Both the position numbers and the translations under genes were made by a program. The notes beneath the pieces were generated by a model, which was not told where the DNA came from, did not search any database, and saw nothing but the letters and a program-made list of their open reading frames with translations. DNA of 64,000 nucleotides from a phage. Below, one piece after another: positions 1-8,797 of this stretch (the first letter of the stretch is position 1; the number at the start of each line of letters is the position of its first letter). The stretch lies in the sequence record PZ534511.1. One strand, written 5' to 3'.

Positions 1-120
1 CAGCGTGGCGGTGAAGTCTTTCATTTCGTCACGTGGTGTTTTAGTGCAATACCAGATCTCAGGCTTGCCGATCTGTAAGTTGCGTAAAAATTCTGTTTTG
101 CCTGTTTTGTTAGTGATCAT
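1..120 (-). CDS. hypothetical protein (N-terminal part; gene continues beyond window start)
   Basis: Minus-strand ATG at 118-120 with GAGGT upstream; translation MITNKTGKTEFLRNLQIGKPEIWYCTKTPRDEMKDFTATL runs off the window edge. Confidence 0.3.
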   Translation of the reverse strand, partial: MITNKTGKTEFLRNLQIGKPEIWYCTKTPRDEMKDFTATL

Positions 121-324
121 TTGCCAACCTCACCCGATACCGTTGGAAGACAAGATCATATTAGACATGGTTGCAATCAGGCCAATACCCAGGGCAATAG
201 CTAGGATCACCGCATCAATTAATTTCTGTTTCATCTTGTTTTCCTCTTCTTGTTCCAGGTGGCGGACCATTCCACCGCCTTATGTATTATGCTTTGTAAG
301 ATGGTTGTTTGTTTTCAAACTATT

Positions 325-504
325 TTAACGATAATCATCGTACGCTTTATTAACCTGGCGAATATAACATTCAAAAGCCAGATCAATAGATTTATATTCA
401 CGGATATACTCACCATAGGAAACCACATACATTTCTATAGCTTCCTCATATGCGAGGAGAATAGAATCCAAGCCTACGATCTCAGTCTTTGCAATAATAG
501 CCAT
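325..504 (-). CDS. hypothetical small protein (~59 aa)
   Basis: Minus-strand ORF below the 60 aa track cutoff, found by manual translation (MAIIAKTEIVGLDSILLAYEEAIEMYVVSY...); co-directional with neighbours. Confidence 0.3.
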   Translation of the reverse strand: MAIIAKTEIVGLDSILLAYEEAIEMYVVSYGEYIREYKSIDLAFECYIRQVNKAYDDYR

Positions 505-689
505 GATTTTTATCCTCTTTGTGGTTGGTGGGGCTTGCCCCTTTGATTTATATACTACAGTCTTATATGGTCATGTCAACTATTTTCAAAAAATTTTTCT
601 GCTGTGATATTTTTCCCGGTAGGGTTCGCTACTTTCAAAATTCTATCATGCACCGGACGCCCAAAAGAATAAGCGCCGTACACAGTAAA

Positions 690-881
690 CTAATAATCGC
701 CGTCAGGTTGTACTATTACCGCCGCATAGGGTACGCCTTTTTCGTTATTGCTGACAAAATAGATCACGTTGCCATTAATAGCCTCGGTGCGTTTAATTTG
801 TTCCATCATGATGATTTGCCTCTCTTTATTTTCATAATTGGGGGCCTTTTCGGCCCCGCCAGGTTTATTTGTTGATAGCAT
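690..881 (-). CDS. hypothetical small protein (likely starts at internal ATGATG near 806)
   Basis: Track ORF; internal Met pair preceded by AGAGAGG RBS; the upstream part overlaps a GGGGCC..GGCCCC hairpin. Confidence 0.3.
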   Translation of the reverse strand: MLSTNKPGGAEKAPNYENKERQIIMMEQIKRTEAINGNVIYFVSNNEKGVPYAAVIVQPDGDY

Positions 882-1149
882 GCAGCGGGAAAGGTACGCC
901 AGGTTGATAGATAACTTTTACAACCTCATCAGGACAAAAGAAGTTGCAGAACTCACCGCAATAGGCCTCATCCTCTTTTAGCTCTTCATCGACATACTCA
1001 AAAAAGTAGTCGATGCTTGGATAATCCTGACCGGGATTATAGTCAACCATTGTCAGGACTAGTTCAAGATCGTTGCGTAGGATATGCATACCCGCTTTTA
1101 AGTATTTTGCTTCCATTTCTACTACATCGCCAACGGTAACAATAGCCAT
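865..1149 (-). CDS. hypothetical acidic early protein
   Basis: Track ORF 94 aa; RBS ATAGGAG upstream; promoter-like TTGCAT..GATAAT plus 5'-UTR hairpin upstream. Confidence 0.5.
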   Translation of the reverse strand: MAIVTVGDVVEMEAKYLKAGMHILRNDLELVLTMVDYNPGQDYPSIDYFFEYVDEELKEDEAYCGEFCNFFCPDEVVKVIYQPGVPFPLHAINK

Positions 1150-1374
1150 GGTTTTAACTCCTATCTATCCGGTTAATGATTGGGGGCCGCCCCCCTGACA
1201 CGTCCTATTATCCATATTGTAGGGCTTGATGCAAGTACTTCTTTAAAAATTTTTTAAGCGCCTTGGGGGCCGCTGTAGCGCCAAAATAATAAAGGCCATG
1301 CAACCGCATAGCCTTTATGTGATTATATCGCTGCAGGCCCTGCCATGGGCCTTATTTTGCATCATTTGCTGGAA

Positions 1375-1695
1375 TTATTCAGAGAAAACATCGTTCACAA
1401 TAGCGATCACAATGCCGCCCACCTTGTCACGGTCAACAATGCACAAATCACCATAGATCATGTGGTAGTCTGGATGATCTTTCACGGAATAGTCAATGAG
1501 TGTCTTCTTATCGTCCAGCTTTTTGACTTCCATGGTCATTGTAATGAATTGATCGTTAAATGCACTATTGCGGAAGATCATTACCTGGCCGCCTTGACAT
1601 CCAGTGATCTCAACTTCCACGCCGTCTACGATCTGACCATCAAAGAAATAAAGATTATTGGCGGGTATAAACATGATCATTGCTCCTTTTTGCAC
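1375..1695 (-). CDS. hypothetical protein
   Basis: Track ORF 106 aa; RBS AAAGGAG before ATG; preceded by a copy of the 45 bp promoter-hairpin repeat. Confidence 0.5.
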   Translation of the reverse strand: MQKGAMIMFIPANNLYFFDGQIVDGVEVEITGCQGGQVMIFRNSAFNDQFITMTMEVKKLDDKKTLIDYSVKDHPDYHMIYGDLCIVDRDKVGGIVIAIVNDVFSE

Positions 1696-1718
1696 TGATT
1701 ATTTTAACAGGGTTTAAA

Positions 1719-1763
1719 TTTACTTTATTGATGGTCCTGGAGTCAAGACCATCTAAAAATAAA
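1719..1763 (-). repeat. 45 bp intergenic promoter-hairpin repeat, copy 1 (GATGGTC..GACCATC variant)
   Basis: Near-identical to copies at 5426-5470 and 6059-6103; contains TTGACT -35-like element and TAAAYT -10-like element on the minus strand; stem carries a compensatory C>T / G>A change. Confidence 0.7.
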
Positions 1764-1765
1764 TT

Positions 1766-2035
1766 TTACAGGCCTACAATCTCTTTGATTCGTTTAACTG
1801 CTGCCTCAGCGCCTTGGGGGTAGAAATTATGATAACCAATCACGCGGGTAATACTGATCGCCACCTGATGATCTTCATAATACCCCTTGAATATTTCTTG
1901 ACCATCAACCAGCACAGCAATTTTTTCTTCTTTTTTGAAGTTAATAACGCGGATATTGTTGCTCATTTTGTTTCTCCTTTTGGAACTTTGTCTATGTGGT
2001 GGGGGAGTGTCTCCCCGTTGATTGTTATTATCCAT
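1766..2035 (-). CDS. hypothetical protein (probable start at internal Met near 1966, MSNNIRVINF...)
   Basis: Track ORF; internal ATG preceded by AAAAGGAGAAAC RBS; promoter TTGCAA-16-GATAAT and GGGGAG..CTCCCC UTR hairpin upstream. Confidence 0.5.
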   Translation of the reverse strand: MDNNNQRGDTPPPHRQSSKRRNKMSNNIRVINFKKEEKIAVLVDGQEIFKGYYEDHQVAISITRVIGYHNFYPQGAEAAVKRIKEIVGL

Positions 2036-2213
2036 ATTCTGGACCGGATTGCAACACCCCGGAAGAAAAATTTTTTGAAAAGTTAGGCCCCCAGGGATCG
2101 GGGGCCGTTATCAGGTGCGTACAGCGATAAAATACATCCCTACGCCTAACAATATTTCAAGGGCGATGATCTCCAGCCATACCATAACACGGCGCGCCTT
2201 ATCGGTGCGGGGC

Positions 2214-2396
2214 TTATCCTTGGGTGTCATCGTCTCCCCCTTTCCTCCTGTTAGTAGTGACGTGGTTTGCAATGGCCCCCAGGAGTATTATCACCACGCA
2301 CATTACAAGAAAAATTATCTCTGTCGTTGTTCGATCCATTGTTATAAAATTCCTTAAGATCAGGCCTGAAAATAAAGCTTTCATTATTGAATCCAT
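2214..2396 (-). CDS. hypothetical small membrane protein (probable start at internal Met near 2339)
   Basis: Track ORF; hydrophobic stretch IIFLVMCVVIILLGAIA; AAGGAA RBS before the internal ATG. Confidence 0.3.
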   Translation of the reverse strand: MDSIMKALFSGLILRNFITMDRTTTEIIFLVMCVVIILLGAIANHVTTNRRKGGDDDTQG

Positions 2397-2449
2397 CCCG
2401 CCAGGCGGCTGGCCTCAAATCTTCACTAAATGGATTAATTAACGTGGTA

Positions 2450-2854
2450 TTATTTAAACGGCTGGCCCACATATTTTCTATTCCTCTCAAATAAGCGATC
2501 CGCCTCAGTTAAACAAATCTCATGGGCGTGATCTCTGGTTTTAGCTTCATCGAAAACCTGTTGTGCAAGGCTGCAACGTAGGGAGACTGGAAGATCACTA
2601 TAATAGGCGTTGACAAACGTTTGAGCGTCGTACAGGTCTGAAAATACTTTACCCTTTCTATTATTCCCCTTGTCAACAATTGCAAGGATAACCAATACAA
2701 TAGTTGCAACCACCCCCAGGAAAATAGATATAATAAACCATAAAAAGGCGGATCTTCCCATCTTGCCAGCGATCCAGGCGTTAAACAAGGCAACCAATAC
2801 AGCCAAAATAATAAATTCCATTCTATGTACCTCTTTTACAGTTCTGATTAACAA
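2450..2854 (-). CDS. hypothetical membrane protein
   Basis: Track ORF; two predicted TM segments (FIILAVLVALFNAWIAG, FLWFIISIFLGVVATIVLVILAIV); probable start at MEFIIL. Confidence 0.5.
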   Translation of the reverse strand: MLIRTVKEVHRMEFIILAVLVALFNAWIAGKMGRSAFLWFIISIFLGVVATIVLVILAIVDKGNNRKGKVFSDLYDAQTFVNAYYSDLPVSLRCSLAQQVFDEAKTRDHAHEICLTEADRLFERNRKYVGQPFK

Positions 2855-2885
2855 TAAGGCGGCAAATATGCCGCCTGTTACCTGA

Positions 2886-3266
2886 TTAAAAATTATCGCC
2901 GTAAATCTTTCCGCTTTCTACCCATACCACCACGCGAGGCATACTATCCCACACGTCTTGTTTTAGATTGAGCGCGTGCAATTCTTCGGTGGTGCTCATA
3001 CCGGGCACGGGCTGATTGTATACTGCAAAACGACCACCCGCATAATCATAGGCTAGAGTTAAATCACACTGGATCATCTTTTTGATCATGGCATTAAGCA
3101 TGGCGTTAGCCGCATACTGATCACGTTTTAAAGGCAACTCTTTGATTAGTTTGCGATAGTTTTCGATATGGTCGCACACTGTTTCACGCGGAAGATCTTT
3201 CATATCCTCGCGAAAGGTAACCAGGTTAAACATAACGGTGTCAATAGCTTTAGTAGTGTTTTTCAT
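2886..3266 (-). CDS. hypothetical protein
   Basis: Track ORF 126 aa; RBS AGAGGAAAAC; promoter TTGCAA-16-TATATT at 3321-3348. Confidence 0.55.
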   Translation of the reverse strand: MKNTTKAIDTVMFNLVTFREDMKDLPRETVCDHIENYRKLIKELPLKRDQYAANAMLNAMIKKMIQCDLTLAYDYAGGRFAVYNQPVPGMSTTEELHALNLKQDVWDSMPRVVVWVESGKIYGDNF

Positions 3267-3320
3267 GATGTTTTCCTCTTTGTTTTGTGTGGGGGCAAAC
3301 GTCTTGCCCCCTTGAGTTTT

Positions 3321-3348
3321 AATATAGCAGGTTTTTAGGTTATTGCAA
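3321..3348 (-). promoter_or_regulatory. sigma70-like promoter (TTGCAA-16-TATATT) followed by GGGGGCAA..TTGCCCCC 5'-UTR hairpin
   Basis: Hexamers and spacing read directly on the minus strand upstream of the 2886..3266 gene. Confidence 0.5.
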
Positions 3349-3356
3349 CACTTTAT

Positions 3357-3980
3357 TTATGAAAAAGTCATCTCGCCATCTTCATCCACATCAAACCGCC
3401 AATCATTGGCCTCGATAAGGCCGATCAGGTTTTCGGTAGTGAATTGTTCAAGATAGGCCCCCTCCAGGTCTACGTAAACCTTGCGGGATAGCTCCCGTAC
3501 CGTCTCGGTGATCAGCTCTTCCAGGTCTTCCACTTTGTTTTCTTGTTTGGCGGTCAGATCTAGCCAGGTGGTATCAATGTATCCGCTTACAGTGTTTTCA
3601 TGGCTGTAATGGCTGTACTTGTCGCGTTCAACACTGGCTGATAACTCGCCATCGTGCATTGTGCCGAACAAGTGACGAATTGATCGGAACTTGGTCAGGG
3701 CCTTTACTTTACGCAAAAATTTTTCTAAATCCACGTTTTCAGCACTGATTGAAGCGCCGTCACCCTGGCACCAAAAGCCGGACCAATGTACTTCGGTATC
3801 TTCAAGGCCGTACTCTGGAAAGATATATTCTTTGTAGTGTTCAATTACACTTTCTGCAAAAAAGTCATCCCCGCTGTGTTCTTCTCTTTCGCGTACCATT
3901 TCAATGGCTTTTTCTTTTTGTTCGTCGGTCAGCACGTCGAAAGATAAATTGTAACCTGTGGTAATGTTAACGGTGGTCAT
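3357..3980 (-). CDS. hypothetical acidic early protein (207 aa)
   Basis: Track ORF; strong RBS AACAGGAGAAAATATC; highly acidic; preceded by promoter TTGACA-16-TATACT. Confidence 0.6.
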   Translation of the reverse strand: MTTVNITTGYNLSFDVLTDEQKEKAIEMVREREEHSGDDFFAESVIEHYKEYIFPEYGLEDTEVHWSGFWCQGDGASISAENVDLEKFLRKVKALTKFRSIRHLFGTMHDGELSASVERDKYSHYSHENTVSGYIDTTWLDLTAKQENKVEDLEELITETVRELSRKVYVDLEGAYLEQFTTENLIGLIEANDWRFDVDEDGEMTFS

Positions 3981-4036
3981 GATATTTTCTCCTGTTTTCT
4001 TTGTTAGTGGCGGGAAGTTTTCCCGTTTACGTGTTT

Positions 4037-4064
4037 AAGTATACTTATCAAGATTTACTTGTCA
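4037..4064 (-). promoter_or_regulatory. sigma70-like promoter (TTGACA-16-TATACT) with downstream GGCGGGAA..TTCCCG 5'-UTR hairpin (4010-4026)
   Basis: Read on the minus strand: TTGACAagtaaatcttgataagTATACT, then hairpin, then RBS and ATG of the 3357..3980 gene. Confidence 0.6.
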
Positions 4065-4315
4065 ACACTATTTTTTAAATTATTGTGGCGCAAAATGTTT
4101 AAAATCTCCTCAACGTCATCAACACGGCGGCAATTTTTAAACGCTACCAATTGCCCCATGATTTTAATCACTGGGCGGCCTTGCCAGTGCCCCTGGAGAA
4201 AGCGCGCCTTGACTTTATCGGTGGAACTATCACGCCACCAAATAGCCTTGTTGTTGCAGTAGTAAAAATTATTCAGGACAACATCAACTTTATCAAAATT
4301 TTTTAATTTACGCAT
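4055..4315 (-). CDS. hypothetical protein
   Basis: Track ORF 86 aa; co-directional early gene. Confidence 0.45.
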   Translation of the reverse strand: MRKLKNFDKVDVVLNNFYYCNNKAIWWRDSSTDKVKARFLQGHWQGRPVIKIMGQLVAFKNCRRVDDVEEILNILRHNNLKNSVDK

Positions 4316-4533
4316 GGCGTTTACTCCTTTCTCTCTTTGATGTGGTTAGTATAGCTAACCTGTTGACGATGTCAATGATATTTTTAACGCCATAAAACGG
4401 CCTTGGGCGATGTTTTCAGGTTAAAGGGGGCGATTGCATAGGTGGGGGCCTTTTTGGCGCTTACAGGGCCAACCAGGGGCGCTATTCGTAGGATAGAAAT
4501 AAAAAGCCCCGCACAATGGCGGGGCGTTGGTTG

Positions 4534-4755
4534 TTATTTGTCTTTATGGCGGTATCGTTCTGCCTGTCGTTCACGTTCCAAAAGTAGGCCGGGCAATTTA
4601 CGATCATAATGATTACGCCAGATCTTCCCAAACCTTTTTGGCTTATTCAGTTTATTGTTACGCTGGCGGCGTTCTGGCAGCTCTTCGGAATCATGAGGGC
4701 GCTTTACAATTTTCTCGAAATTAATTTTCATATATTCCCCCCTTGCTAACTTCAA
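4534..4755 (-). CDS. hypothetical small basic protein
   Basis: Track ORF; Arg/Lys-rich; probable start at MKINFEKIV. Confidence 0.4.
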   Translation of the reverse strand: MKLARGEYMKINFEKIVKRPHDSEELPERRQRNNKLNKPKRFGKIWRNHYDRKLPGLLLERERQAERYRHKDK

Positions 4756-5137
4756 TATTGGCCTGAATAGCCCGGATACGGCGCTTTATAACTTCCTGAT
4801 CTGTGTGATCGTATCCCCAAAAGTCTACAATTTTTGCGCCCCCAGCCTTTAGGCGGTATAGTGTTTCCTGCATTTTGTAAGCCGGGATCGGTCGCGGTGT
4901 TACCTGGTCGCCCTTCTCATTCTTGTACTTGATAATGTAGTCTTCATTGTCGTTGAATACCCAAAATGGGTATTCTGTGAGCGCGTTGCTCTCTTTTTCG
5001 TTTTTAGATTGGATCTTGTTTACAATTAAAGCCGTAGCAATAGCGCCAATAATAAAACTTGCCCCGCTGATCATGTACTTTCTCCTTTCATTGTGTTGAT
5101 AAACTGTCTTTATAGATGGCCCTGCTACCAGGACCAC
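4721..5137 (-). CDS. hypothetical membrane-anchored protein (probable start near 5074, MISGASF...)
   Basis: Track ORF; internal ATG preceded by AAAGGAGAAAG RBS; N-terminal TM helix FIIGAIATALIV. Confidence 0.5.
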   Translation of the reverse strand: MVLVAGPSIKTVYQHNERRKYMISGASFIIGAIATALIVNKIQSKNEKESNALTEYPFWVFNDNEDYIIKYKNEKGDQVTPRPIPAYKMQETLYRLKAGGAKIVDFWGYDHTDQEVIKRRIRAIQANIEVSKGGIYEN

Positions 5138-5149
5138 CGAAAAAACAGC

Positions 5150-5395
5150 TTATTTGACGATACCGACAAAACAGATCCCGCCTTCCCCTATATAGGCAAT
5201 ATCGGTAATTTTATAATTTGTCAAGATCCGCGTGTTCAGATCATTAATAAAATCGGTCATCGCGTTGGTGTAGTTGTCTTCCGTGTCTAAGGCATAATCC
5301 CAGGTGTAAACCTTTTTACGTCCGAAGCCTTTTACCATGATACGGGCGCTTTTGGTGTTGGTGGGCGCATAATATTTTGTGATTAGTGCTGCCAT
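5150..5395 (-). CDS. hypothetical protein
   Basis: Track ORF 81 aa; RBS AATGAGGAG; preceded by 45 bp repeat copy 2. Confidence 0.5.
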   Translation of the reverse strand: MAALITKYYAPTNTKSARIMVKGFGRKKVYTWDYALDTEDNYTNAMTDFINDLNTRILTNYKITDIAYIGEGGICFVGIVK

Positions 5396-5425
5396 GGTTT
5401 TAACTCCTCATTAGTTCAGTGTTAA

Positions 5426-5470
5426 CAGTGTAAAGTTTACTTTATTGATGGCCCTGGAGTCAAGGCCATC
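5426..5470 (-). repeat. 45 bp intergenic promoter-hairpin repeat, copy 2
   Basis: TTTACTTTATTGATGGCCCTGGAGTCAAGGCCATCTAAAAATAAA; identical to copy 3. Confidence 0.7.
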
Positions 5471-5482
5471 TAAAAATAAATT

Positions 5483-5824
5483 TTACTCGTTTTCTTCCAG
5501 CTCTGAAAGCTCTTCTTTCATTTCTTCCAGCTCTGTCTGCAATTCCTGGTATTCTTCATCGTCCTCAATATCCAGGCTGTCGATGTAGTCGCTAAATCCG
5601 CAGCGGTAAGCGATAGGATCTAACTCCTTGAGGATACGCGACGGAAGAAAAGAAATGTTTCCGATCATAATTTCGCCGTAGATCTCGTCTAACCATTCAT
5701 CATAGTTTTCGTCGTACTTGTCCTCGTCGATTTCAAAGTTATCGATCTTATTCTCAAGGTCTGCGATCTGTTTTTTCAGTTCAGCGATCTGCATAGCTTT
5801 TTCTGCGGCGGTCATAGTAGTCAT
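5483..5824 (-). CDS. hypothetical highly acidic coiled-coil early protein (113 aa)
   Basis: Track ORF; Asp/Glu very abundant (EELQTELEEMKEELSELEENE); driven by consensus promoter at 5875-5902. Confidence 0.55.
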   Translation of the reverse strand: MTTMTAAEKAMQIAELKKQIADLENKIDNFEIDEDKYDENYDEWLDEIYGEIMIGNISFLPSRILKELDPIAYRCGFSDYIDSLDIEDDEEYQELQTELEEMKEELSELEENE

Positions 5825-5874
5825 GGTGTTTTTCTCCTTTTGTGTATTCTGGGAAGTTTTCCCGTTTATGTGCT

Positions 5875-5902
5875 TATTATATCGATTTAAGTTAGCTTGT
5901 CA
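5875..5902 (-). promoter_or_regulatory. consensus sigma70-like promoter (TTGACA-16-TATAAT) followed by GGGAAGTTTTCCC 5'-UTR hairpin (5850-5863)
   Basis: Minus strand reads TTGACAagctaacttaaatcgaTATAAT; both hexamers perfect consensus. Confidence 0.65.
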
Positions 5903-6058
5903 ATTAAAAGTTTAAGAAAAATTTTGCGACACCGTTGGCGCTACCCATCAACATTTGCGCCAGGATGTACCCAATGATGCAAACGATAATAGTTACCTTT
6001 GTGTGCTGGCGTGTAGTACTCATCTTTAAGCCCCCCTTTCCGCTCAACTGTGGTTAGT

Positions 6059-6103
6059 TTACTTTATTGATGGCCCTGGAGTCAAGGCCATCTAAAAATA
6101 AAC
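6059..6103 (-). repeat. 45 bp intergenic promoter-hairpin repeat, copy 3
   Basis: Identical to copy 2. Confidence 0.7.
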
Positions 6104-6499
6104 TCAGTAAGTTTTCAGTACTTTCCCGTCCAACCTGTCTAACTGAATCTCAATAGCTGCAGAAAACCTATTGTAAACCACATCGCCCAGGGAGTCCAGC
6201 CAATCTATGACGTTATACACCTGCTCTTTATTCTTGCAAGTCCGGATCCGTTTCATTACGTAAGACGGATCAATATTAGCGCTCTCGTTGTTGTGGTCAT
6301 GCGCCTGGCCTGCTGCGCTAGTTATAGATTTTACAACCACCTGAAAGGGCTTTAAGGTGCCTTTTGCGTTCATCTCACGCGCTTTCGCGGCGCGGTTGTT
6401 GTATGTTACACAACGGTGGCAAATGTTGACCAAATGCATATCAATAATTTTTTCATCGTTTGCCAGTTCGTTCATGATGCGGCGTACGTTCTTATTCAT
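6104..6499 (-). CDS. hypothetical protein
   Basis: Track ORF 131 aa; RBS AAAGGAAAAAAGATC; promoter TTGACA-16-TAAACT at 6549-6576 with 5'-UTR hairpin 6523-6540. Confidence 0.55.
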   Translation of the reverse strand: MNKNVRRIMNELANDEKIIDMHLVNICHRCVTYNNRAAKAREMNAKGTLKPFQVVVKSITSAAGQAHDHNNESANIDPSYVMKRIRTCKNKEQVYNVIDWLDSLGDVVYNRFSAAIEIQLDRLDGKVLKTY

Positions 6500-6548
6500 G
6501 ATCTTTTTTCCTTTGTGTTGGCGGGAAACATTCCCGCCTTTTGTGTAT

Positions 6549-6576
6549 AGTTTACTTGAATTTTGCAGCGTGTCAA
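6549..6576 (-). promoter_or_regulatory. sigma70-like promoter (TTGACA-16-TAAACT) with GGCGGGAA..TTCCCGCC 5'-UTR hairpin
   Basis: Read on the minus strand upstream of the 6104..6499 gene. Confidence 0.55.
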
Positions 6577-6583
6577 TAATTTT

Positions 6584-6982
6584 TTATTCGTGGGCACATG
6601 TTACAATGTGTTTTTTATAGCCCAGGTGGTCAGCAAGTGCCGACAAAAACTCTTCTTCGTAGATCCAGCCGTCGGCAGTGATCCCCATAGCATTTAATGC
6701 GCCCTCAAGTGCTGCGTTAGCTTTATCGTAACCGTGACCGCTCGCCTTGCCGCCAGTATAACCGTACTTATTGTTCTTGTTGTCGTGAATCCAAAACACG
6801 CAGTAGTGAGTGTTCCCGCTGGCGGCGGCATAATACCGGATCTCAGCTACTTCGTGCAAATTATTGTCATCGTCCAGGCCCACCAGATTATAAGCCTTGT
6901 AAAATCCACGATCACGGCGGCAGTTCTTGACATCAGAAAAAGAAAAGTCCGCATTATCAAAATTAAAGGTAGTGGTTTTCAT
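6584..6982 (-). CDS. hypothetical protein
   Basis: Track ORF 132 aa; RBS AAGAGGATAAAATC. Confidence 0.55.
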   Translation of the reverse strand: MKTTTFNFDNADFSFSDVKNCRRDRGFYKAYNLVGLDDDNNLHEVAEIRYYAAASGNTHYCVFWIHDNKNNKYGYTGGKASGHGYDKANAALEGALNAMGITADGWIYEEEFLSALADHLGYKKHIVTCAHE

Positions 6983-7046
6983 GATTTTATCCTCTTAGTG
7001 TCTTTTGTGCTTTTAGTGTATTTGGTGTCGGACTATATGTCAATAC

Positions 7047-7322
7047 TTATTTTTTATTAAACCAGTGGTTGATCTGTCCTTTTGTCAGGGCGCAACGATC
7101 AAGCTGTTGCAGGGTATAGCTATGACCGCGACGAAATTTATAAAGGCCTTGCCCGTTGTTAATGGTTACATCCACCCGGCAAATCACTTGATTGGTGACC
7201 ACCTGGCGAGTGTTGCGACGTACTTTGATCCCGTATGCGTTCATAAATTTATCCTCTTTACTGGTTAGTGCGGTGTTGTTCACCTTGTAGGGTAATAATA
7301 CCATGATTAACCTTGTTGTCAA
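7047..7322 (-). CDS. hypothetical small basic protein (probable start near 7244, MNAYGIKVRR...)
   Basis: Track ORF; internal ATG preceded by AAAGAGGATAAATTT RBS; promoter-like TTGACA..TATTAC upstream. Confidence 0.45.
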   Translation of the reverse strand: MTTRLIMVLLPYKVNNTALTSKEDKFMNAYGIKVRRNTRQVVTNQVICRVDVTINNGQGLYKFRRGHSYTLQQLDRCALTKGQINHWFNKK

Positions 7323-7325
7323 CGA

Positions 7326-7571
7326 CTATTTTAAATTATTTTTATGATAGAATCCACCTGCCGCCCCCCGCCAGGTTAACCACCATTTTTTTTCGTACTC
7401 TTCTTTATGTTCCAACGCTCCCGCCATAACCTTTTCAACCAGGGCGATAGCTTCCGTATCATTAATCACTACATTTCCCAGGCGAGTAGCATTACCTTTC
7501 ATTTTTGTACCTCTTCTGTAGCTGTTTACTTTATAGTGCGGACCTGCCAGGCTGGCCCCGCCAGGTTGCAA
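7326..7571 (-). CDS. hypothetical small protein (probable start near 7502, MKGNATRLGN...)
   Basis: Track ORF; internal ATG preceded by AGAAGAGGTACAAAA RBS; the N-terminal extension overlaps GC-rich hairpin sequence. Confidence 0.4.
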   Translation of the reverse strand: MQPGGASLAGPHYKVNSYRRGTKMKGNATRLGNVVINDTEAIALVEKVMAGALEHKEEYEKKWWLTWRGAAGGFYHKNNLK

Positions 7572-7610
7572 CGGTTAGCGCATCAGGTTAGAAAAATTTT
7601 TTGAAAAGTG

Positions 7611-7639
7611 TTGACAGCGGCCCCGCCAGGCGGCATAAT
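7611..7639 (+). promoter_or_regulatory. plus-strand sigma70-like promoter (TTGACA-17-CATAAT)
   Basis: Near-consensus hexamers with 17 bp spacer; faces away from the minus-strand early genes into a noncoding region. Confidence 0.55.
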
Positions 7640-7645
7640 ATACCT

Positions 7646-7745
7646 ATCGAAAGGACGGCAGGCACCGGTGACGGGGGAGACAACCACCGGGGATGGGCGC
7701 TTCATAAAATGAGAACGGTTATCATTATCATTTAAAAATTTATGC
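7646..7745 (+). ncRNA. candidate small structured RNA, unit A (GC-rich stem-loop with GAGACAA loop motif, then AT-rich hairpin and U-rich tail)
   Basis: Lies just downstream of the 7611-7639 promoter; no ORF with RBS; shares GGGAGACAAYCACCGGG and GAGAAYNNTTATCATT motifs with unit B. Confidence 0.35.
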
Positions 7746-7789
7746 AAAAAATCCTTGCCTTCTTTGTCCTGTGTGATACTATAATAACA

Positions 7790-7880
7790 AGCCGGGGCAG
7801 CAGGGGCCGGGAGACAATCACCGGGCCTGCCCGTTATTCTGCAAACGAGAATAATTATCATTCAAAATTCTAAATAAGAA
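7790..7880 (+). ncRNA. candidate small structured RNA, unit B (paralogue of unit A)
   Basis: Preceded by TTGCCT..TATAAT promoter-like sequence (7755-7785, 19 bp spacer, weaker); stem GGGCAG..CTGCCC enclosing GGCCGGG/CCGGGCC with loop AGACAATCA. Confidence 0.3.
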
Positions 7881-7945
7881 TCCCTCGCATTTAATAAATT
7901 TAATTAGCATGCTAATTACCCTCCGTAACAATTTCCTATAAAACA

Positions 7946-8160
7946 GTGCCCCATAAAATATTCCCATATAGAAATTTTAAAAATCCATTTCTGAAAACGA
8001 AAAATAGATTTCGTCCCCAAAAATTTCAGGTCGAGATCCGGAACGATTTCCAGAAAATCCGATTCAGAAAACGAAAAACAGATCGAGTACTGAGAAATTT
8101 ATCGAGAAAAATTTTCAGAAAATCCAAGCCCTGGAATGAAAAGTAGATCGAGTACCTGGA
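7946..8160. repeat. AT-rich iteron-like direct repeats (GAAAACGAAAAAYAGAT, AGATCGAGTAC x2, CAGAAAATCC x2, AAATCCATTT)
   Basis: Short imperfect direct repeats read directly; the only large noncoding stretch in the window (about 7.87-8.46 kb). Confidence 0.5.
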
Positions 8161-8467
8161 AAGCTGCACCGCAACTTCAAGATAGTGGTTAGATTGTTAC
8201 CATAGAAGGTCAAGGGTAAGTGGAGGAAGTTCTAGTAGAGGGAGGTTAGCATGTGTGGGAAATCTATAATGGTGGTCTGGAATATGGTGCAAACGATAGG
8301 ATGAGCTATTCAGCTTGTCGCGCCTACTCTGAAAAATCCATTTTAGTTTTCGATCCATTTTCTGATTTTCTAAGAATTTTAAAATATCCAGCCCGGTGAA
8401 ATATCAAAAGGAGGAAATCCATTTTAGAAATCCCCCTTATACTTGATATGCCAGGAATTTTCAAGTA

Positions 8468-8797
8468 TCAGTTGTCTTTGTTTTTAGGTTTGTACATGCG
8501 CAGAGGTATGGTCTTTGTAACATTCCATTTCCTCAACCCTTCCCAGCTCCAGTTGTGGGCGTGGTATCCGGTTATGCATGCACTACTGGAGTGATCGTAA
8601 GCATAAGAGAACGCTAAGCGCACCAGGTGGGGCCAGTCCTTCCATGGTTGTGGACCGTAAGCTTTTCTCCAACACCGACACAAACTAAATGTCTCAAGAA
8701 TAGGAAGGATAACAAATCCATACACCGCCACCAGAATAGCCAGCGCAATGATTGTCAGGAATACATACCCTGCAGTTGAAATGATGATCTCTGTCAT
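8468..8797 (-). CDS. hypothetical membrane protein
   Basis: Track ORF 109 aa; N-terminal TM segment IIISTAGYVFLTIIALAILVAVYGFVILPIL. Confidence 0.5.
   Translation of the reverse strand: MTEIIISTAGYVFLTIIALAILVAVYGFVILPILETFSLCRCWRKAYGPQPWKDWPHLVRLAFSYAYDHSSSACITGYHAHNWSWEGLRKWNVTKTIPLRMYKPKNKDN

Follow-up and report, generated by a model that had tools for sequence, protein, structure and literature searches.

The early control region of the phage studied here carries a recurrent G+C-rich 12-mer, GGCCCCGCCAGG, which we interpret, with a probability of roughly 0.4, as a sequence-specific cis-regulatory DNA element, namely an operator-like block of promoter spacers. The window, the whole stretch of 64,000 nt that was analysed (PZ534511.1), belongs to Vequintavirus, the rV5-like Escherichia coli phages, and is nearly identical to phage EmilHeitz (99.9% identity), whose complete genome (140 kb) contained no copies of the 12-mer beyond the same early region. 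The control region comprises about 1 kb of non-coding sequence (7503–8467), with small early genes on one side and replication genes on the other, and the early region is composed of modules that combine a promoter, a GC hairpin, and a ribosome-binding site. Short cis-regulatory words are nothing unusual in the early promoters of phages, and the present motif is undescribed in its details. The rV5 genome paper gives sigma-70 promoters and a 'non-coding' box, and no description of the motif was found in its text and supplements, in the text of the CB7 paper, or in literature searches.

A scan of the window identified three exact copies of the 12-mer, at positions 852–863 (site A), 7554–7565 (site C), and 7619–7630 (site D), all on the plus strand and in one shared orientation. 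The sequence-only reading had placed the last of these correctly, whereas its positions for the other two (858–869 and 7549–7560) were off by 6 and 5 bases, respectively. A further copy at 7364–7375 on the plus strand, CCCCCCGCCAGG (site B), had been described as a one-base variant; it carries two mismatches, although the 10-mer CCCCGCCAGG is exact at this site, as it is at sites A, C, and D, giving four exact occurrences in the window. The edges of the motif are sharp at 12 nt, and the flanks of the copies show no similarity. The word is asymmetric, unlike most operators, which counts against an operator-like reading.

Enumeration against shuffled sequence, the check that had been proposed together with the motif, gave counts far above chance. 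When up to one mismatch was allowed, the shuffles led us to expect 0.08 copies of the 12-mer, and at least three copies were reached in 0 of 100 shuffles; for the 10-mer CCCCGCCAGG, the expectation was 0.06 copies, and none of 100 shuffles reached four. As a look-elsewhere control, we screened 60 dinucleotide shuffles for any 12-mer with at least nine G+C in at least three copies, and a comparable GC-rich repeat appeared in none of them. The small number of copies is the one observation in favor of a functionless GC-rich word that recurs by chance. Given these shuffle results and the retention of the motif in relatives and in another genus, chance recurrence is effectively excluded, and we assign it a negligible probability.

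Site D occupies positions 3–14 of the 17-nt spacer of a predicted sigma-70-type promoter at 7611–7639 on the plus strand (TTGACA-GCGGCCCCGCCAGGCGG-CATAAT, 11/12 match), which confirmed the earlier claim of a copy within this spacer. The promoter is directed away from the early genes and into a conserved non-coding stretch. Just upstream of its −35 hexamer lies an UP-element-like A/T tract, GAAAAATTTTTTGAAAAG (7590–7607), which also precedes two other early promoters (at approximately 583–600 and 2064–2080). G+C accounts for 16 of the 17 spacer positions (94%), compared with 25–50% in other strong early promoters. Across 13 relatives, the promoter was nearly invariant and site D was exact in 11, with substitutions in nom and Gotham (CCGGG in the latter). 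The conservation of site D was no greater than that of its near-invariant flanks, a point against operator-like function. The neighboring segment TAGCGCATCAGG (7579–7590) may resemble host REP elements, and a BLAST search of E. coli genomes with positions 7530–7645 returned no match.

At site C, conservation of the motif could be compared with diverging surroundings. The site was exact in 12 of 13 relatives, being substituted in FFH2 (CTAGG), and only 2 of its 12 columns were variable, as against 6–12 of 12 in the flanks: on the left, the lineages were too different for alignment of the flank, and on the right, 8 of 12 columns varied. Site C is intergenic, upstream of the gene at 7326..7502, and abuts a palindromic −35-like hexamer, TTGCAA (7566–7571), so that the minus strand reads TTGCAA-CCTGGCGGGGCC upstream of that gene. 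Within the window, this hexamer has no −10 element at 16–18 nt. Among relatives, sites C and D are separated by 63 to 69 bp; this variation implies no helical phasing and likewise weighs against operator-like action. A sigma-54 promoter (TGGCAC-N5-TTGCA) was considered for this site and rejected, as TGGC and TTGC in CTGGCCCCGCCAGGTTGCA lie 13 nt apart and not 11, a spacing that is kept in relatives.

Site A lies 1 nt past the stop codon of the minus-strand gene at 865..1149, in the minus-strand sense, and the start of the gene at 690..809 follows about 45 nt downstream. It was exact in 7 of 8 relatives, with 1 of its 12 columns variable and conservation weakly above that of the adjoining non-coding sequence, and was substituted in EmilHeitz. 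The site is not associated with a promoter, and substitutions at sites A, C, and D are tolerated in individual phages; both observations count against the operator-like reading. The first half of site A forms the 3′ arm, GGCCCC, of a predicted hairpin at 841–857 (GGGGCC-TTTTC-GGCCCC), with a folding energy of about −14 kcal/mol on either strand. On the minus-strand mRNA, the hairpin reads GGGGCC-GAAAA-GGCCCC, with no U-run after it. It was kept in eight relatives, with a loop of different length in FV3 (6 nt), and is located like the 5′-UTR hairpins of other early genes, approximately 30 nt before the ribosome-binding site. An intrinsic (Rho-independent) terminator was rejected for this site: the minus strand continues with CAAUUAUGAAAA, the T-rich stretch on the plus strand is 6 nt away, and a terminator scan of the window listed none of the four sites A–D. 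A lambda-type nut site was also rejected, as the hairpin with the GAAAA loop is confined to site A, has no boxA, and finds no counterpart at sites B, C, and D.

The remaining copies appear to be in decay. Site B falls within the 3′ end of the open reading frame at 7326..7502, so that the earlier placement of all copies near gene boundaries or promoters holds for sites A, C, and D and fails for this one. Eight of its 12 columns were variable, its conservation did not exceed that of its surroundings, and it was identical in only 2 of 13 relatives. No promoter is associated with it. The poly-T run adjoining it varies in length among relatives, which leaves the site in two different reading frames or untranslated; because the frame differs or translation is absent, the likeness of site B to the motif is at the nucleotide level. 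A fifth, degenerate tandem copy, GGACCTGCCAGG, is located on the plus strand at 7540–7551, 14 nt before site C; on the minus strand, as CCTGGCAGG, it precedes TATAAAG by about 8 nt. Separately, a class of palindromes, CCTG-N-CAGG, was observed upstream of TATAAAG in the early region, with two instances, too few for interpretation.

Comparison with other genera showed that a CCWGG-containing GC-rich block fills the spacers of control-region sigma-70 promoters across Vequintavirinae and Stephanstirmvirinae, and that its form specific to Vequintavirus is the 12-mer. In phage W70, a member of a different genus, the homologous promoter reads TTGACA-AC-GGCCCCGCCAGG-GGGC-CATAAT; its flanks and downstream transcript differ, and the 12-mer is present in a single copy within 50 kb. 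Related spacers were found at the same promoter in phages of the Klebsiella-phage type (ACGGCCCCGGCCTGGGT), in CB7 (GCCCGGCGAAAGCTGGGC), and also in ESCO13 and PVP-SE1. In CB7, three co-oriented promoters share GCCCGGCG at the edge of their −35 element. The block also stands in reverse-complement form beside the −35 hexamer in CB7 (TTGACA-ACCTGGCCGGGCCGGGC-CACAAT), PVP-SE1 (TTGCAT-CCTGGCGGGGATCGTG-TACTAT), and Klebsiella-type phages (TTGCAA-CCTGGGGCC...-TATATT); the arrangement seen at site C is, in CB7, PVP-SE1, and the Klebsiella-phage relatives, the spacer of a complete promoter. Between promoters and genera, the block varies in its register to the −35 and −10 elements, a further observation that counts against an operator-like role. 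A scan of IMG/VR for the 14-mer GGCCCCGCCAGGTT gave single matches, most of them unrelated, and was uninformative. The sharp edges of the motif, its conservation at sites A, C, and D against the diverging flanks of site C, and the presence of the same 12-mer in the W70 spacer together fit a site that is specified by its DNA sequence.

We considered whether the copies are instead parts of promoter/stem-loop cassettes that duplicate and recombine between the small early genes, with the 12-mer as no more than a core common to paralogous GC-rich stem-loops that would have a structural or recombination role and would not be bound by a protein. In T4-type phages, such cassettes are exemplified by the promoter-early stem-loops, or PeSLs (Arbiol et al. 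2010, PMC2839356; Comeau et al. 2014, PMC4122927), which are described as small sequences that combine a terminator with a promoter and give rise to indels (PMC4122927). As with our motif, these are short promoter/stem-loop repeats located between small early genes of large lytic myoviruses and at indel junctions that distinguish close relatives; next to site C, lineage-specific deletions upstream of 7326..7502 among Vequintavirus relatives end in CCAGG-containing repeat units that adjoin the site. The modular early region, which includes a 45-bp promoter/hairpin module in three copies (1717, 5434, and 6056), the contribution of site A to half of a stable hairpin, and the homologous promoter spacers of W70, CB7, and ESCO13, which are hairpins with differing arms, are also consistent with this explanation. 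However, hairpins need no identical sequence, and the other 5′-UTR hairpins in this region all differ, whereas sites A, C, and D have retained the same 12-mer from before the diversification of the genus. The likeness ends abruptly at the motif edges, without decaying flank homology, and no compensatory changes were seen. Promoter and stem-loop are not joined in one unit at any copy: a good stem-loop is found at site A only, a promoter at site D only, where the Vequintavirus spacer is merely an imperfect palindrome, and neither in full at site C; the predicted roles at sites B, C, and D are different and weak. The 12-mer also differs from PeSLs in being far shorter and sharp-edged, and in having three exact copies kept as sequence, beyond structure, so that the 45-bp module is the better PeSL analogue in the window. 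On balance, we regard the cassette explanation as possible but doubtful.

An element acting in RNA, as CCUGGCGGGGCC on minus-strand early transcripts, where it would direct processing, affect stability, or be bound by an RNA-binding protein or a small RNA, appears unlikely. The transcribed strand of early operons does include sites A, B, and C, the single orientation holds throughout, and site A adjoins a hairpin placed like other 5′-UTR hairpins. However, site D is upstream of a plus-strand start and would enter minus-strand RNA only by unproven read-through, and the W70 motif would be transcribed in the opposite sense. No consistent fold was found across sites A–D, and pairing with two putative small RNAs was no better than that expected of any GC-rich target. 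Rfam searches yielded no family match for the whole window at the gathering threshold, only noise for 7300–8600 at E up to 10, and nothing for four distant loci. Separately, RNAalifold applied to 15 sequences homologous to the second non-coding unit detected no covarying 5′ structure and only a conserved palindrome. We hold it to be very unlikely that the Dcm site CCAGG within the motif is the functional unit, through which methylation by the host Dcm or a phage Dcm-like enzyme would modulate promoters or protect the early region. CCAGG is contained in every copy, CCWGG is 3.2-fold denser in 1–8000 than in the remaining window, and EmilHeitz encodes a Dcm-like C5 methyltransferase; yet the CCWGG excess is unspecific because GGCC, GCGC, and CGCG are equally enriched, the GGCCCCG half, which lacks the Dcm site, is at least as strictly kept as CCAGG, and the Dcm site has been lost at one copy each in Gotham and FFH2. 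Two further candidates were rejected: the minus strand of the motif, CCTGGCGG, has two mismatches to Chi (GCTGGTGG), and a sigma-32 reading failed on a defining feature.

Under the cis-regulatory reading that we prefer, a trans-acting protein, made early by the phage or supplied by the host, would recognize the specific sequence of the block. Bound between or beside −35 and −10, this protein may tune or shut off RNA polymerase, so that the block would act in an operator-like manner. Site A would be a supplementary copy joined to an intercistronic hairpin, possibly with an auxiliary role; site B and the degenerate copy at 7540–7551 would be decaying duplicates. Pfam and PHROGs scans of the neighboring early proteins returned only families of unknown function, with no DNA-binding domain; the small gene beside these promoters in other genera likewise showed no DNA-binding domain and has no EmilHeitz homologue. 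The regulator is therefore something that we infer, since no binding protein was found. Of the two possibilities raised by the sequence-only reading, a binding site or part of conserved hairpins, the hairpin is realized at site A only, and the evidence fits a sequence-specific DNA site.

The proposed arrangement has parallels in other phages. The C1 operators of phage P1 are asymmetric and scattered over the genome, and lambda PR′ carries a Q-binding element in its spacer. As with the motif described here, these are short, oriented, non-palindromic words placed between or beside −35 and −10 in few genomic copies; in our case, however, no cognate protein is predicted, the phage is strictly lytic, and the register to the hexamers is variable. 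In phi29, p4 and p6 act at A2c, A2b, and A3 in a regulated divergent early promoter region, a layout resembled by the present clustering of putative regulator sites at the early-gene boundary, where divergent promoters occupy non-coding DNA. The resemblance is one of layout only, as there is no relationship, or no known match, in sequence, symmetry, or protein. G+C-rich sigma-70 spacers reportedly alter open-complex formation without an extra factor, and site D similarly combines a consensus −35/−10 pair with an unusually G+C-rich spacer (16/17). Such a compositional effect, however, would require neither one 12-mer at three sites nor conservation at sites C and A, outside spacers.

A wider reading, which we offer as speculative and rather doubtful, is that the 12-mer, together with GCCCGGCG of CB7 and GGCCCCGGCCTGG of Klebsiella phages, marks a distinct promoter class read by a putative early factor. 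That factor might coordinate the shut-off of early genes with two non-coding transcription units, unannotated and deeply conserved, and with an adjacent iteron-like region, possibly an origin. The rV5-like phages are in wide therapeutic and typing use, and their transcription programme is essentially unmapped. Within the strongest promoter of the control region, a conserved, sequence-specific spacer element would provide a handle for finding the early regulator, and may also offer a way into dissecting the conserved non-coding region that surrounds it.

Positions 1–7502 of the window contain small minus-strand early genes, followed by a non-coding control region (7503 to ~8467) and, past ~8467, by more minus-strand genes leading on to the replication genes. 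The first 9 kb matched ~170 Vequintavirus (rV5-like) phage records at 90–95% identity, and Escherichia phage EmilHeitz was 99.9% identical across 7250–7950. Most early genes have a sigma-70-type promoter to themselves, which an A/T-rich UP-like tract often accompanies, and a leader in which a GC-rich 5′ hairpin precedes the ribosome-binding site.

The 12-mer GGCCCCGCCAGG occurs exactly at sites A (852–863), C (7554–7565), and D (7619–7630) and with two mismatches at site B (7364–7375, CCCCCCGCCAGG); a degenerate fifth copy (GGACCTGCCAGG, 7540–7551) lies in tandem with C, and every copy is on the plus strand. The exact 10-mer CCCCGCCAGG is present in A, B, C, and D (four occurrences). The sequence-only reading had located D correctly, placed A and C 5–6 bases away (858–869 and 7549–7560), and mistaken B for a one-base variant, although B does keep the 10-mer. 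Its impression of recurrence was borne out against 100 dinucleotide-preserving shuffles, where the expectation was 0.08 copies for the 12-mer (≤1 mismatch) and 0.06 for the 10-mer and the observed counts were reached in 0/100. Post hoc word choice was allowed for by counting every 12-mer present at least three times, which gave 30 in the real window (a handful of repeat families) versus a shuffle mean of 1.3; no G+C-rich 12-mer was this frequent in 60 shuffles. Because the shuffles, including this G+C-rich word control, fell short of the observed counts, chance recurrence was ruled out. Throughout the complete 140-kb EmilHeitz genome, the motif family did not extend beyond this early region, where the 10-mer is present three times and A and a hairpin loop each appear with one mismatch; the sole other near-match lies within the endolysin gene. 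Besides the motif, the only G+C-rich 12-mers present at least three times in the window belong to three near-identical minus-strand intrinsic terminators (32319, 58458, and 63965; CCCCGC-TTCG-GCGGGG, then a T-run).

Site D occupies positions 3–14 of the 17-nt spacer of the promoter TTGACA-GCGGCCCCGCCAGGCGG-CATAAT (7611–7639, 11/12 match), which is directed away from the early genes and preceded by a UP-like tract common to two other early promoters. This spacer is 16/17 G+C, versus 25–50% in other strong early promoters. Site C adjoins the palindromic hexamer TTGCAA, reading TTGCAA-CCTGGCGGGGCC on the minus strand, and no −10 was present in the window at 16–18 nt from that hexamer. Site A, 1 nt past the stop of gene 865..1149 and ~45 nt ahead of the next start codon, consists of the 3′ arm of the hairpin GGGGCC-TTTTC-GGCCCC (841–857) plus GCCAGG; no U-run follows this hairpin on the mRNA strand. 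The earlier suggestion of conserved hairpins thus holds for A but not as a common role, which on folding differed from site to site and was mostly weak.

Conservation was assessed across 8–13 Vequintavirus genomes. Site A was exact in 7/8 relatives, with 1/12 columns variable, adjacent blocks varying at 2–3/12 and indels appearing further left. Site C was exact in 12 of 13 (2/12 columns variable), its right flank varying at 8/12 columns and its left flank being unalignable between lineages. Site D was exact in 11/13, also with 2/12 columns variable, and its flanks were conserved equally. No conservation was found at B (exact in 2/13 relatives, 8/12 columns variable, flanks with 4–14 variable per ~12-column block). 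Since the adjoining T-run varies from 4 to 8 T's depending on the phage, B is read differently between phages: it is translated T-W-R-G in the window and N-L-A-G in Gotham, and lies just beyond a TAA stop in EmilHeitz. What similarity remains there is nucleotide-level. The copies resemble one another no further than the 12–14-mer edges, beyond which just TT is common to A, B, and C, and single phages tolerate substitutions in the motif.

Outside the genus, the sole alignable part of the control region was 7808–7899, which was used to fetch the region from Phapecoctavirus ESCO13, Seunavirus PVP-SE1, Certrevirus CB7, and the unclassified Vequintavirinae phage W70; further relatives were taken from IMG/VR. 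All fetched relatives have one layout, in which divergent promoters and two rightward promoters in tandem, each leading into a conserved non-coding unit, are followed by iteron-like repeats. In every lineage fetched, the spacer of the first rightward promoter is G+C-rich: TTGACA-AC-GGCCCCGCCAGG-GGGC-CATAAT in W70 (the one exact 12-mer in 50 kb of that genome), TTGCAA-ACGGCCCCGGCCTGGGT-TATATT in the Klebsiella-phage type, TTGCAA-TCGGCGCGGCCCTGGGT-TATAGT in PVP-SE1, TTGACG-GCCCGGCGAAAGCTGGGC-TATACT in CB7, and TTGACA-AGCCCAGGGATCGGGCT-TATACT in ESCO13. Three lineages have complete promoters whose spacer is the C-like reverse-complement form beside a −35: CB7 (TTGACA-ACCTGGCCGGGCCGGGC-CACAAT), PVP-SE1 (TTGCAT-CCTGGCGGGGATCGTG-TACTAT), and Klebsiella-type phages (TTGCAA-CCTGGGGCCGTGTATCC-TATATT). 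Three co-oriented promoters of the CB7 control region carry a different word, GCCCGGCG, at their −35 edge. Because the relatives' homologous promoters have G+C-rich spacers, the 12-mer is, on this comparison, the form taken in Vequintavirus by an old and slowly changing G+C-rich spacer block of control-region promoters, and C looks like a remnant or variant of the leftward promoter's block.

Three facts argue for sequence-specific recognition of the 12-mer at the DNA level over hairpin potential alone: the 12-mer at A, C, and D has stayed the same from a time before the genus diversified, whereas the other local hairpins are all different; the motif's boundaries are sharp; and its orientation is fixed on the DNA yet opposite with respect to the two divergent promoters. 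Its location in or beside promoter hexamers is suggestive of an operator-like element, which would modulate RNA polymerase. The register relative to the hexamers varies, and neither the neighbouring early proteins nor the adjacent small gene of other genera yielded a candidate DNA-binding protein. The main rival holds that the copies are cores of cassettes like the promoter/stem-loop units (PeSL, promoter-early stem-loop) of T4-type phages (PMC4122927), mattering as structure and as recombination substrates. It is consistent with site A, with the hairpins formed by the W70, CB7, and ESCO13 spacers, and with the deletion junctions. Lineage-specific deletions upstream of gene 7326..7502 terminate within CCAGG-containing units, which marks these repeats as recombinogenic. 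This rival leaves the constancy of the sequence itself unexplained. Action at the RNA level and a Dcm-based reading are weaker alternatives, and terminator, nut, sigma-54, and Chi identities were rejected, each lacking a defining feature.

The rV5 genome paper describes 33 sigma-70-like promoters, 20 terminators, and a 'non-coding' box, and the motif is absent from its text and supplements. The CB7 paper goes no further than a general consensus for early promoters with a UP element, and our literature search found no transcriptome study of the rV5-like group. The motif is a real, conserved, previously undescribed cis element of an ordinary kind.

Several other features of the early region were observed. 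On the minus strand of 500–7300, nearly every early gene has one leader layout (−10, 7–12 nt, G+C-rich hairpin, 10–30 nt, ribosome-binding site), with no two hairpin sequences alike; these are likely 5′ stabilising stem-loops. A 45-bp module found three times (1717–1760, 5434–5480, and 6056–6100; variant at 5110–5150) is a PeSL-like composite promoter/stem-loop, in which the hairpin GATGGCC...GGCCATC holds the −35 hexamer TTGACT in its loop and the −10 TAAACT follows; the copy near 5121 keeps the hairpin and has lost the −35. Short G+C-rich palindromes are 3–4 times denser in 1–8000 than in 8001–64000 (CCWGG 3.2x, GGCC 3.0x, GCGC 3.6x, CGCG 4.2x), with no such enrichment for same-composition controls, e.g. 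GGWCC, and EmilHeitz encodes a Dcm-like methyltransferase. Downstream of site A, gene 690–809 (minus strand) has an in-frame stop, and the match of its 39-aa product to a 77-position PHROG profile is confined to the profile's first half; as the relatives' counterpart is annotated as 231–237 nt, the window's phage may carry a nonsense allele.

Within the control region, tandem sigma-70 promoters on the plus strand of 7611–7870 (7611–7639, and TTGCCT-16-TACTAT with an extended −10 at 7755–7782) are each followed by an 80–95-nt unit comprising a G+C-rich 5′ stem and an A/U hairpin. The two units are paralogous, sharing GGGAGACAAYCACCGGG, and near-invariant across 13 Vequintavirus genomes, and homologues of the second occur in Phapecoctavirus, Seunavirus, Certrevirus, and Klebsiella phages. 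Both units resemble small-RNA genes. Rfam returned no match for the units in 7611–7870, and RNAalifold on 15 homologues of the second found no covarying 5′ structure, which leaves the small-RNA reading unproven. A 92-aa minus-strand ORF annotated here in relatives (7583..7861) looks spurious. The E. coli Fur-box consensus is GATAATGATAATCATTATC, and the best matches to it in the 64-kb window (15/19 at 7711–7729 and 14/19 at 7841–7865) both lie at the 3′ ends of the units. At the same place in distant relatives (ESCO13 locus, 1535–1650), the palindrome AAATGAGAAT-N-ATTCTCATTT occurs in up to four or five tandem copies; it is the region's most conserved part across genera and could be a Fur site or a phage-protein site.

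Directly downstream of the second unit, a perfect 18-bp palindrome, TAATTAGCATGCTAATTA (~7903–7920), is kept in relatives with one substitution in nom and FFH2 and is a candidate operator for a dimeric protein. Iteron-like units of the form GAAAACGAAAAATAGATCGAGTAC follow at ~7960–8170, and PVP-SE1 and CB7 have similar GATCGAG-containing repeats after their non-coding units; the repeats at ~7960–8170 may be a replication origin, with both rightward promoters pointing in. ESCO13, W70, and CB7 have, between their divergent promoters and first non-coding unit, a small conserved gene (...WQGGTVHQVASATGLKVETVLNL...; L136 1010–1276, L138 1007–1273, and L139 862–1284, respectively) of 88 aa in the first two and 140 aa as annotated in CB7, with no Pfam family and no homologue in the complete EmilHeitz genome; its position suggests a regulator of the control region in those genera. 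The motif itself is of modest interest, less than that of the non-coding control region around it.
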